Shown: piece after piece, positions 5,640 through 9,026 of the stretch
Layout of the letters: every line of letters begins with the position of its first letter
Numbering within the stretch: position 1 is the stretch's first letter
Virus record (IMG/VR): IMGVR_UViG_3300031994_000010
Span: 96,001-160,000 of that record
Strand: one strand, 5' to 3'
Length of the DNA: 64,000 bases
From: a virus
Taxonomy: Duplodnaviria; Caudoviricetes
Notes under the pieces: generated by a model
The model's database searches: none
Seen by the model: only the letters and a program-made list of their open reading frames with translations
What the model was told of the DNA's origin: nothing
Program-made: the position numbers and the translations under genes

Positions 5640-6020
5640 TTAAATTTTGTTACCGTTTTGAATAATTAAATCTACTATTTGATCTAAGGTTAAACAATAA
5701 CCTACATTTCCTTCGTCTAAGAATTCGCCCATCATATCACGTAACCAGTTTATAATACTTCTACGATCCTTTAATTGCTCGGCTTCTTCTTCCATAAGAT
5801 CTTCGACTCTACGATCAAATTCTTTCTTTGCTTCAGGTAGGATAGTTTTAATTTCTTCCTTAGTTATGTCTGGATTGTCATACTCAAGAGCTGCAATGAA
5901 GCTATCTCTAGTTCCCTCCCAGTCATCTGGCCACCAGTCATACTCGAATAACATTTCTAGAATTTCAGGAATTGATACTTCTTCCTCAACTTCTACTAAC
6001 TTAGTCTTTTTAACTTTCAT
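5640..6020 (-). CDS. hypothetical acidic protein
   Basis: 126 aa ORF, ATGA-coupled to radical SAM gene. Confidence 0.7.
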   Translation of the reverse strand: MKVKKTKLVEVEEEVSIPEILEMLFEYDWWPDDWEGTRDSFIAALEYDNPDITKEEIKTILPEAKKEFDRRVEDLMEEEAEQLKDRRSIINWLRDMMGEFLDEGNVGYCLTLDQIVDLIIQNGNKI

Positions 6021-6952
6021 ACTTTAATTACTTTTATAGGATTTAAATTAAATGAACTTGGAGTAATAGTAACTTTACCATTATCCAATAAAATATTTTT
6101 AGAGTAGGCTTCTTGTGGATAAGTAGAAATAGGAAGTTTAGTTCCCTTATTTATATAAGGATAGAAATTAGCTCCAAATGCCACATTACTAATGTTATTT
6201 TTAATAATTTCTTCTTCAAGATACTCATATACTCCATCCTCTATACCTTTAGTACTTCTACCATGAGCCATTAAAGGTAAAAGAACGTGATAGTGAATAT
6301 CTTTACCAAAGTTTTTAGCATACACTATAAAATCTTCAACAGATTTCTTATTAGAAATAATATGATGAATCATTACTTTACAGTCGCCATATTTAAGAAG
6401 ATTATAGATAGCTTTTAAAGCATTTAAACGAACTAACTCATTTCCAAAAGAAACAGCTACTCCTCCAACAAAGTTCTTTGTATATTCAAGAATTTCCTGA
6501 CACCAAGGATCAGAATAATCAGATAAGATTAAACCATTAGTAGTATAGTTGGGAACTACATCAGTTTCAAATACTGTTTGAATAAACTTAGTAAATTGTT
6601 TAGAACAAGTAGGTTCTCCAGTTGAACCAATTGCTATCTGGTATGGGCGTAAACTAGTAGAAACATTACCTCTCTTCTTAATAGGATATTGTTCCATCCA
6701 ACGTTTCCATGTTCCACAAATATCTTCAAAGTCTCTTCCACCCTTACCAGCAGATACATAACAAAATGGACACATTAAGTTACATCTTGTAGTAATTCCT
6801 ACATCATAAAACTCAGATAACTCAGGAGGAAGTTCAATGATTTCTTCATCATCTTCTCCAAGTCTTATAGTAACTAAATTATTCCAAATTGCTCTATAAT
6901 TATAGTCTTTAAGAGTACGAATCTTAGTACCCCAACTTTTAAAATCTTTCAT
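6017..6952 (-). CDS. radical SAM domain protein
   Basis: CxxxCxxC (CNLMCPFC), GEPT and TTNG motifs. Confidence 0.9.
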   Translation of the reverse strand: MKDFKSWGTKIRTLKDYNYRAIWNNLVTIRLGEDDEEIIELPPELSEFYDVGITTRCNLMCPFCYVSAGKGGRDFEDICGTWKRWMEQYPIKKRGNVSTSLRPYQIAIGSTGEPTCSKQFTKFIQTVFETDVVPNYTTNGLILSDYSDPWCQEILEYTKNFVGGVAVSFGNELVRLNALKAIYNLLKYGDCKVMIHHIISNKKSVEDFIVYAKNFGKDIHYHVLLPLMAHGRSTKGIEDGVYEYLEEEIIKNNISNVAFGANFYPYINKGTKLPISTYPQEAYSKNILLDNGKVTITPSSFNLNPIKVIKV

Positions 6953-7091
6953 GCTTCTGTTACTAAATCAATTTTATCTATATTCCAATGTTCTCTACGA
7001 ACTAACTCTGCAGCGGCTTCTGGACAAGTAGCAGTACACCATTCTTTGTCATAGTCACCATCTTTTGTAGTAAATCGTACAATATACTTTT

Positions 7092-7274
7092 TCATCCTAA
7101 AGCATCGTCTAAATCACCAATTTCACCACCTAATCCTAAATTATCTGGTTCCCAATTATTTGGAATAAACCAACAATTCTTATCAGGATCAAAGTAACAC
7201 TCTTTTGGATAATCTGGATTATCCATATAATCCTGAATTTCAGGCCATTCTACTTTTCTATACAAATCTGTCAT
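7092..7274 (-). CDS. small hypothetical protein
   Basis: 60 aa ORF in operon. Confidence 0.55.
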   Translation of the reverse strand: MTDLYRKVEWPEIQDYMDNPDYPKECYFDPDKNCWFIPNNWEPDNLGLGGEIGDLDDALG

Positions 7275-7566
7275 AATGAAAATTCATTATTACTGGTTTA
7301 TCTTTACATAATTCTTCTACTACTGCTTTATAAAGGTCTAAAAACTTATCCTTATGATAAGGGACATCAATTTTTATTGTATTGTCGTCCCTCTTATCAA
7401 ATTCACTTAGACAAAGGGTTTGCTCTCTTTCCTGTCTCCAACAGTCAAAGAACTCATATAAATCAGTGTGAATATTATCGAGAATTTCTGGATCAGTTCC
7501 AGATATAACGCAAAAAACCTCACTACTAGAATTAGTAATGAGGTCACTTATACTTTTAATTTTCAT
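7258..7566 (-). CDS. SDxITNSSSEVF-leader family protein (copy 4)
   Basis: starts MKIKSISDLITNSSSEVF. Confidence 0.8.
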   Translation of the reverse strand: MKIKSISDLITNSSSEVFCVISGTDPEILDNIHTDLYEFFDCWRQEREQTLCLSEFDKRDDNTIKIDVPYHKDKFLDLYKAVVEELCKDKPVIMNFHYDRFV

Positions 7567-8015
7567 CCTAGATGGTGTCTTTGAATTGATTCAATAGGTT
7601 TCTTTTTATGCTTTAAACCAGGTTCATCAGGTTTATGATTCCAATCGTAGTAAGGTAATTCTACTTCACCTAAATCTTTTGCCCAATATCCTTGAAATTT
7701 ATCTCGAAATTTCTTATTCCAATATAAATTATCAATAATACTCATTAACCAACTTGGTATAGTATTATCACTAGTAGAATGAATTAACAAATCATTCTTA
7801 TGAACATAGTAATACCACTCGTCATCAATATAAGTTTCATCAGATATTGTAGTATATAACATATCATCAATATCTTCTTCAAATAAGTCACAAATACTTT
7901 TTAAGAACTCAGGAATTTCTTGATTAATTTCATCCTGAAATTCTGGTTTAGCGTGAATTATAAATACTTCACTAGAAGAATTTGTAATTACGTCAGATAC
8001 ACTAATAATTTTCAT
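7563..8015 (-). CDS. SDxITNSSSEVF-leader family protein (copy 3)
   Basis: starts MKIISVSDVITNSSSEVF. Confidence 0.8.
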   Translation of the reverse strand: MKIISVSDVITNSSSEVFIIHAKPEFQDEINQEIPEFLKSICDLFEEDIDDMLYTTISDETYIDDEWYYYVHKNDLLIHSTSDNTIPSWLMSIIDNLYWNKKFRDKFQGYWAKDLGEVELPYYDWNHKPDEPGLKHKKKPIESIQRHHLG

Positions 8016-8410
8016 GCTCGATCTTTAATATATTCAATGTTATTATTAAGTAATTCATCTTCAACTAAACATATACGTGAATAACCTGAGTCTGAATCAT
8101 CATCCTCTTCAAAAATTGCTTTATCGAGAAGATCCTTCAAGAAAATTTCTAAAACAGAAGTTGCTTTGTCATTATCCAATTTACTTATCTCTTCTATAAA
8201 GTCGTAATCACTAAGAAAACTAGGAAGACATAGAGTATCTATTACATCACGAAGTTCATAATTTAAAAATTTTTCGAAAACGTTTTGCTTAGTTATAGTT
8301 TTAAAATATTTTTGACATTCTGGAGGAAGTTTATTTAAATCCTTACTATCAATAATAAAAACTTCACTTGACGAATTAGTAATTACGTCAGATACACTTA
8401 ATATTTTCAT
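8012..8410 (-). CDS. SDxITNSSSEVF-leader family protein (copy 2)
   Basis: starts MKILSVSDVITNSSSEVF. Confidence 0.8.
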   Translation of the reverse strand: MKILSVSDVITNSSSEVFIIDSKDLNKLPPECQKYFKTITKQNVFEKFLNYELRDVIDTLCLPSFLSDYDFIEEISKLDNDKATSVLEIFLKDLLDKAIFEEDDDSDSGYSRICLVEDELLNNNIEYIKDRA

Positions 8411-9026
8411 AATTCATAAAAGTTTTTAACCCAGATGCTTTTATTTGATCAATTACATATTTAATAAATTCTGGTTCTCTTTCAAATATGGATTCCTTAT
8501 TTAATATATCATAGGCAAAATCTGGATAAGGAATTTTATCTTCTTCGCGAGTGTCTCCTCCTAAAATAGTGCAATTCTTATATATGTAATCTCTTGTAGC
8601 ATCCTGTGCTTGGTCTGAATCCAAATATAGTAGATTTTCTATATCAGAAATATTGTATTCTTCTAACCAATCTTTTACAGTATATGAAAATTCCTTTTTA
8701 TCAAGGTCTGGATATTTTTCATAATATTCGGATACATCTTCCCAAGTTATGTCATTTTCTGGATCGTTTATCATTTCCTCCCAGTCTCCTAACATACCTT
8801 TACGTATAAACCATAAATCAGCAGCTTGAGAAATATAAAAGACAGTCCAATCACCAATATCAAAAATTCCTCCCATTCCAGAACCTCTGTCTATTTTTCC
8901 TTCATAACCATCTTTATGAATTTCCAACAAGATGTCTTTTAACTCTTTAGCTTTGTACTGAGATGTAAGAAGAAAAACTTCAGAACTACTATTAGTAATT
9001 ACATCAGATACACTTAATATTTTCAT
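8388..9026 (-). CDS. SDxITNSSSEVF-leader family protein (copy 1)
   Basis: starts MKILSVSDVITNSSSEVF. Confidence 0.8.
   Translation of the reverse strand: MKILSVSDVITNSSSEVFLLTSQYKAKELKDILLEIHKDGYEGKIDRGSGMGGIFDIGDWTVFYISQAADLWFIRKGMLGDWEEMINDPENDITWEDVSEYYEKYPDLDKKEFSYTVKDWLEEYNISDIENLLYLDSDQAQDATRDYIYKNCTILGGDTREEDKIPYPDFAYDILNKESIFEREPEFIKYVIDQIKASGLKTFMNYENIKCI

Follow-up and report, generated by a model that had tools for sequence, protein, structure and literature searches.

A conserved N-terminal tag on phage proteins with unrelated bodies is linked to a radical SAM enzyme that may modify it

Large uncultured phages contain a gene module, so far undescribed, in which proteins that have little in common beyond a short N-terminal tag are encoded beside a radical S-adenosylmethionine (SAM) enzyme. 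It is described here from a 64-kb window, the whole stretch of DNA that was analyzed (positions 96,001 to 160,000 of IMG/VR record IMGVR_UViG_3300031994_000010), of a 174-kb phage genome. Coordinates are window positions; those in other loci are given with the locus number, which starts with L. On the minus strand of the window four tandem open reading frames (ORFs), called p212, p132, p150 and p102 after the lengths of their products, start with MKIxSxSDxITNSSSEVF. Two tiny ORFs follow in the same direction and then the gene for the radical SAM (rSAM) enzyme, in which Cys57, Cys61 and Cys64 form a CX3CX2C motif (Table 1). A preliminary description, made from the sequence alone, had reported this layout, and both the ORF list and the alignment confirm it. 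It had also described the ORFs as translationally coupled. Every junction between 9026 and 6017 is indeed a start/stop overlap, of 4, 17 or 23 nt, so that coupling itself is plausible.

When the four window proteins are aligned, 15 of their first 18 residues are invariant (M1, K2, I3, S5, S7, D8, I10, T11, N12, S13, S14, S15, E16, V17 and F18), and beyond residue 18 there is one single invariant column. The motif was not found beyond these four N-termini in a six-frame scan of the 64-kb window, nor in the 174-kb genome. The DNA behind the tag is far from constant. The four copies vary at synonymous sites, including serine codons that switch between AGY and TCN, and in 109 distinct 42-nt leader DNAs from related loci all six serine codons are used at each invariant serine. 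The conservation of the tag is selection on the protein. Such codon diversity cannot be reconciled with gene conversion, with a recombination cassette or with a signal in the RNA as the cause of the conserved 5' ends, and these explanations were ruled out.

The consensus of the family, from 354 unique proteins, is h-I-x-S-h-[ST]-D-[VIL]-I-T-N-S-S-[ST]-E-[VIL]-[FY]-h-h. Its T, N, S and S are present in 100% of the proteins, but these positions were imposed or restricted by the filter with which the set was collected; T and N were required, the next positions were limited to Ser/Thr-type residues, and E(+5) was allowed to be E, D or K. At positions free of the filter, S(-6) is present in 98% and D(-3) in 97%. 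E(+5) is E in 99% of the proteins, though D or K was also admitted. The tag is N-terminal, and for 352 of the 354 the distance between the start and the T of TN is no more than 25 residues. At its variable positions, tags from the same genome are more alike than tags from different genomes (similarity 0.564 vs 0.478, with 0 of 1000 permutations reaching the within-genome value), and despite this likeness 57% of the identical tag residues compared carry different codons. With sequence relatedness as a caveat, this pattern would fit a shared, genome-specific partner.

There is also a recurrent variant of the tag, ITNSSTS[IV][FY], in which Ser replaces the 99%-conserved Glu. It is present at L009:9248, at L052:9108 and 9472, and at L141:7191. 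In L009 and L052 the variant shares an array with canonical tags.

Is the tag simply a part of the fold of these proteins? The preliminary description had raised this, allowing that the motif might be merely a strand of one shared fold. In the AlphaFold2 (AF2) model of p150, the body has a predicted local distance difference test (pLDDT) score of 91, residues 1–11 score below 50, and strand 1 runs from E16 to I20. No packing on its own body is therefore predicted for the first two-thirds of the most conserved segment, and only the EVFxx end is structural in the model.

The tag genes and the rSAM gene are found together from whichever side the search begins. In loci identified by the tag, a homologue of the window enzyme is encoded alongside in 79 of 81 (E 1e-22 to 1e-219). 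It is nearly always directly downstream of the tag genes, with upstream placement in L059 and L065 and placement between two tag genes in L047. The first of the two exceptions is L010, where the enzyme is 33 kb away on the same contig. The second is L021, where a different, bona fide Radical_SAM protein (PF04055, 42 bits) is encoded one gene downstream of a variant-tag protein. This protein resembles the window subfamily in the cluster loop only and is a non-orthologous rSAM replacement in which the chemistry has been kept. Conversely, in loci identified by the enzyme, tag genes lie within 8 kb in 72 of 76 further loci, and in one more (L141) the variant tag is present. Outliers in this set are a 305-kb genome, which has three tag genes approximately 100 kb from the enzyme, and one remaining locus from a fragment judged to be 7% complete.

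The arm of the window genome that holds the module is entirely co-directional and encodes replication proteins: a Toprim primase, AAA_24, a DnaB-type helicase and a PD-(D/E)XK nuclease. The enzyme is encoded in 18 of a set of 20 representative loci, and the primase, DnaB, AAA_24 and nuclease neighbors in only 10–13. The tag/rSAM pair is present without the replication module in L015, L030, L047, L059 and L074. Co-occurrence of leader and rSAM, which the preliminary description had proposed as a check, is thus very strong and reciprocal; it holds outside replication synteny and survives the swap to another rSAM subfamily in L021.

The window enzyme belongs to the radical SAM superfamily. C57, C61 and C64 of the radical SAM cluster motif are invariant in 18 diverse homologues, and in the same alignment the GGE-like SAM-binding motif has the conserved form GSxGEP. 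The AF2 model (pLDDT 91.4) is a partial TIM-barrel with 107 PDB rSAM matches at E<=1e-3. The score against Pfam PF04055 is 25.6 bits, slightly below the cut-off of 29.5, and curated family models give weak matches at the cluster region only. The top structural matches are maturases of peptides that are synthesized by the ribosome and modified post-translationally (RiPPs), SkfB (Z 20.4, 253 residues) and SuiB (Z 19.4, 269 residues). Their alignments begin at model residues 6–8, chain residues 4–12, so they take in the N-terminal domain of the enzyme; viperin (Z 17.2), anSME (Z 15.2) and PFL-AE (Z 13.6) are aligned only from model residue 41–47. The N-terminal domain, compared with SuiB and SkfB by alignment ranges and not by residue pairs, consists of three strands (9–14, 19–24 and 27–31) with no helices, and its residues N18, Y19, A21, W23, T28 and R30 are invariant in the 18 homologues. 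No conserved Cys was found in the 18-homologue alignment besides C57, C61 and C64, and the window protein is free of Cys after residue 191; the enzyme therefore has no SPASM/twitch auxiliary cluster.

Other assignments of the enzyme were considered and rejected. The viperin family model NF038283 scores 22.5 bits vs a cut-off of 180 and covers residues 53–154 only. For a glycyl-radical activase (NrdG/PflA), TIGR02495 (NrdG2) scores 10.1 bits vs a cut-off of 131, and the tag is without Gly. An rSAM like spore photoproduct lyase (SPL), such as M6 gp53 of DNA hypermodification, was dropped because the sequence match to SPL reaches only E 0.3 and the top folds do not include SPL.

Some variation was seen within the enzyme family. 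One subclade has a CX4CX2C cluster loop (L062, L006 and L074; for example L062:11003-11965). In L063:10309-12449, and also in L032 and L073, the rSAM gene is split inside the IAIGS/TGEP SAM-binding motif by an insert of approximately 1.1–1.6 kb. The insert of L063, approximately 1.2 kb with a GIY-YIG-type ORF, resembles a group I intron that encodes a homing endonuclease. In L030:10780-12270, the rSAM ORF starts with intein-like F/G (C-terminal) blocks ending in VHN, right before the third cluster Cys, and in a different frame an HNH-motif ORF is located just upstream; in L015 the same enzyme is free of any interruption. Selfish elements appear to target the rSAM gene at the motifs that are most conserved.

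The bodies that follow the tag have been described as unrelated in the preliminary description, and at the level of sequence this holds. Once trimmed of the tag, the four window proteins give no matches among themselves, and profile-profile comparison (hhalign) of the four body families gives probabilities of 0.1–0.7%. One divergent body superfamily was also considered, for single-linkage clustering merged 283 of 384 bodies, yet the direct profile-profile tests of the four window types are all below 1%, and the merging was therefore treated as chaining. The p150 type is a widespread domain of approximately 100 residues with motifs of its own (Table 1), RxHLG being at the extreme C-terminal end. 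H-[LIV] is present within the last four residues in 104 of the 283 clustered bodies, mostly as an HLG ending. The p150 model is an alpha+beta sandwich of ferredoxin-like fold, and searches with Foldseek of the PDB, VIA-wide, ESM Atlas and BFVD matched it only to generic ferredoxin-like folds (best Z 6.9) and to phage hypothetical protein clusters. The p212 type has 15 full-length relatives of 45–82% identity in which S49, G50, M51, G52 and G53 are invariant; its ESM Atlas model (pLDDT 0.37) is too poor for use.

That the tagged proteins belong to no named family, another statement of the preliminary description, is borne out. None of the four window proteins matches a family in Pfam, PHROG or NCBIfam, no Pfam or PHROG family is common to more than one of 147 representative tagged proteins, and a PDB profile search gave only E>0.4. 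The larger tagged forms, which reach approximately 330 aa, are without Pfam domains, and no fusion with the rSAM occurs among them. The motif string retrieved only unrelated papers from the searchable literature.

How widespread is the module? In an exhaustive profile search (E<=1e-3), the tagged proteins form at least 221 clusters at 50% identity, nearly all of which begin with the tag. The rSAM family has at least 1,466 clusters at 90% identity. Members of the enzyme family are mostly unnamed, with generic source labels, most often 'MoaA/NifB/PqqE/SkfB family'. Loci with tag genes in IMG/VR are on contigs of approximately 80–280 kb and have 1–6 tag genes, usually in tandem, in all but one locus; loci identified by the enzyme extend to contigs of approximately 400 kb. 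Overall, a genome has 1–7 tag genes beside one enzyme gene. No cultured relatives were matched in 50,697 GenBank phage records, either by blastn of the region or by tblastn of p150 and the rSAM.

The tag family is almost exclusively phage. In prokaryote genomes, one for each of 185,579 species, there are three tag loci only, all on contigs of metagenome-assembled genomes (MAGs). Among these, L165 (CASEGV010000001.1, 371 kb) and L164 are 'uncultured Mycoplasmatota' MAG contigs with phage tag genes. The tag peptide and flanking DNA of L165 (48 nt compared) are identical to those of the IMG/VR locus L021, and L165 and L164 are therefore probably phage contigs misplaced in bacterial bins.

Table 1. 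Genes of the module in the 64-kb window, with the homologue counts for the untagged ORFs taken from the 20 representative loci
Feature	Position	Strand	Tag (codons 1-18)	Characteristics
Tagged protein 1 (p212), 212 aa	8388-9026	minus	8973-9026	Body motif SGMGG-x-x-D-I-x-D-W
Tagged protein 2 (p132), 132 aa	8012-8410	minus	8357-8410	Body family of its own
Tagged protein 3 (p150), 150 aa	7563-8015	minus	7962-8015	Ferredoxin-like body; GDLxIxSxxDNSIP; RxHLG C-terminal end
Tagged protein 4 (p102), 102 aa	7258-7566	minus	7513-7566	Tag-coding RNA with terminator-like hairpin, then U-run
60-aa ORF, untagged	7092-7274	minus		Poorly conserved; homologue in 2 of 20 loci
48-aa ORF, untagged	6949-7095	minus		Poorly conserved; homologue in 1 of 20 loci
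Radical SAM (rSAM) enzyme, 311 aa	6017-6952	minus		C57-x3-C61-x2-C64; GSxGEP and VPNYTTNG motifs; N-terminal three-strand domain ~9-31; Cys-free C-terminal beta-hairpin region

Of the two untagged ORFs, the 60-aa ORF is probably outside the core of the module. Two features set p102 apart from the other genes. It is the sole module gene with a TAG stop codon (7258-7260). Reading of this TAG as a sense codon was considered and would add merely 6 residues, so recoding would alter p102 little. The second feature is the hairpin in its tag codons (7516-7545, minus strand), which has 13 pairs ahead of the U-run, a minimum free energy of -19.6 kcal/mol and a z of -4.7; the z of the other three tag-coding stretches is 0 to -1. 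The DNA of this hairpin is identical in L001 and L166. Possibly it acts as an attenuator and thereby fixes how much tagged protein is made relative to enzyme.

Several known systems have features of this module. Like the phage enzyme, the RiPP maturases SkfB and SuiB, the best structural matches from the N-terminal domain through the barrel, are associated with putative substrates whose N-terminal segment is conserved and whose genes lie directly upstream, often as several copies. Unlike them, the phage enzyme is without a SPASM/twitch cluster, its N-terminal domain has three strands only, the phage 'cores' are folded proteins of 80–250 residues, and the system is phage-encoded. In the RiPP recognition element (RRE, PqqD-like), an N-terminal winged-helix domain of three strands and three helices, the bound leader forms an additional strand. 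In prochlorosin biosynthesis, one promiscuous maturase, a lanthipeptide synthetase, acts on many precursors that have a conserved leader and a hypervariable remainder. The phage genomes likewise have one enzyme gene with 1–7 tag genes and unrelated remainders, but here the enzyme is an rSAM, only approximately 18 residues are conserved and an entire domain varies.

Two further comparisons are with enzymes that act on folded proteins. The sulfatase maturase anSME is an rSAM that modifies one residue within a brief conserved motif, close to the N-terminus in many different folded proteins (C/S-x-P-x-R of many sulfatases), as is proposed for the phage enzyme. However, anSME needs the SPASM auxiliary clusters that are absent in the phage enzyme, the motifs are unrelated, and the structural alignment starts at model residue 45, so that the N-terminal domain is not common to both. 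The PFL-AE and NrdG activases are compact single-cluster rSAMs whose target is a loop in a folded protein, whereas the phage tag has no Gly-radical motif and the NrdG2 model falls far short of its cut-off. By analogy, the logic of the module would resemble leader-guided RiPP maturation, or anSME acting on many sulfatases, with an enzyme that is outside the SPASM/twitch, viperin and glycyl-radical activase families.

We favor the reading that one rSAM maturase serves many co-encoded tagged substrates by recognizing and modifying their tag, and judge the chances of this to be about even. Its basis was computed here and consists of the tag, the selection on it at the protein level, the gene linkage, the fold class of the enzyme, and a tag left unpacked in the model. 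The preliminary description had suggested a post-translational modification system. That suggestion gains from the rSAM linkage, from a tag that is not a mere buried strand and from the RiPP maturases as nearest structures; binding and the modification step itself we infer. When the complex of the rSAM, SAM, a 4Fe-4S cluster and p150 was predicted, the scores were 0.01 and 0.13 vs a mark of 0.32, and the prediction is counted neither for nor against this reading.

How might such a system work? The tag hIxSxSD[VIL]ITNSS[ST]E[VIL][FY] would be the sole feature common to the cargo, and flexible. Its alternating KIxSxSD part would dock as a beta-strand on the N-terminal three-strand domain of the enzyme, like RiPP leaders on RRE-type domains. 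Docked in this way, the tag would bring its invariant T-N-S-S-S loop to the SAM/[4Fe-4S] site, where the 5'-deoxyadenosyl radical would take a hydrogen atom from one of the T-N-S-S-S residues. A redox-neutral or reductive outcome, such as epimerization to a D-residue or radical dehydration, would be more likely than a thioether or C-C cross-link, because known rSAM classes suggest as much for an enzyme without auxiliary-cluster Cys. The diverse and fast-evolving cargo, from an early/replication operon, would most likely be host-takeover or anti-defense factors whose stability, activity or delivery depends on the modified tag. In its fullest form, which we offer tentatively and at somewhat worse than even chances, the proposal is that viruses run RiPP-like maturation on folded proteins. 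A single-cluster rSAM would modify the universal 12-residue T-N-S-S-S tag of hypervariable early effectors by radical chemistry, to give for instance D-residues, a dehydro-residue or a cross-link, and the effectors would need this tag for function.

There are points that weigh against modification of the tag. The cargo consists of folded domains of the size given above, unlike RiPP cores, and loss of the auxiliary cluster removes the chemistry used by the closest structural relatives. With three strands and no helices, the N-terminal domain would owe its RRE-like label to the alignment ranges alone. The low pLDDT of the tag could stem in part from ragged N-termini in the alignment. Many of the loci come from related phages, so the raw linkage counts overstate independence and the 20 representatives are the fairer sample. 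Finally, an adaptor role for the tag explains the reciprocal linkage equally well.

Would the tag then be a docking peptide and not a substrate? As adaptors, the small proteins would be interchangeable specificity or regulatory subunits that steer the rSAM to other targets, for example nucleotides, DNA or host proteins. The bodies are folded and diverse domains, such as the ferredoxin-like sandwich, the module sits amid replication genes, and viperin-type nucleotide enzymes are also near in structure (Z ~17), all of which would suit adaptors. However, a simple docking strand seldom demands absolute invariance of five polar residues (T-N-S-S-S) while the phage enzymes share only approximately 40% identity. 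Nor was any further conserved substrate-related gene found alongside the pair in the 20 representative loci. We consider adaptors unlikely.

The tag could instead be a propeptide that sends the cargo into the prohead and is cut by a prohead protease after S-x-E, before V17, with the rSAM only indirectly related. The internal proteins of T4 have a conserved N-terminal capsid-targeting sequence on polymorphic cargo, and the phiKZ-type prohead protease site is S/A/G-x-E. The phage proteins described here follow the same pattern of a conserved tag, always N-terminal, on polymorphic small proteins, and their S-S-E, followed by V-F, lies exactly at the start of the folded body. In T4 and phiKZ no rSAM partner is known, whereas the tag here is defined by its rSAM linkage. 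Capsid targeting leaves unexplained both this reciprocal linkage and the swap to another rSAM subfamily, the genes lie in an early/replication operon, and the invariance of the tag spans very distant phages without any common neighborhood. Prohead proteases of the S77, S78 and ClpP types were sought in the genome without a match, but the S77 control search was likewise empty, so this negative carries little weight. On balance, a propeptide is improbable.

We give similarly little credence to the motif as an intrinsic site, that is, a self-processing or ligand/metal-binding element (for example N|S or S|S autoproteolysis that yields a pyruvoyl N-terminus), with the rSAM acting elsewhere in the pathway. 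Much of the motif consists of Ser, Thr, Asn, Asp and Glu. The p150 model has a C-terminal RxHLG strand (E144-148) as well as strand 1 (E16-20), and if these are adjacent, as ferredoxin topology would allow, they would make up a composite His/Ser/acid site. However, the four body families are not detectably homologous and RxHLG is limited to one type, which makes a common catalytic architecture unlikely, and AF2 does not pack residues 1–11 of p150 on the body. The weakest explanation, already disfavored and now very hard to credit, is that tag genes and rSAM are adjacent merely through inherited synteny in one phage lineage, for although many loci are closely related and have a common replication module, the pair is kept in five loci without the primase/DnaB neighborhood. 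It also persists where the gene order has changed, where the partners lie far apart, as in two genomes, and, in L021, with an rSAM that is non-orthologous.

Should the enzyme indeed modify the tag, the module would represent a new system of post-translational modification and, to our knowledge, the first known viral leader-guided rSAM maturase that acts on a family of folded proteins and not on short peptides. The module is abundant in phage contigs of approximately 80–400 kb, and given the number of enzyme and tagged-protein clusters, thousands of 'hypothetical' genes would be explained at once. A short and portable N-terminal tag that can be addressed by an enzyme could serve as a handle for protein engineering. 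The variable cargo, in turn, would be a catalogue of candidate host-takeover or anti-defense proteins.

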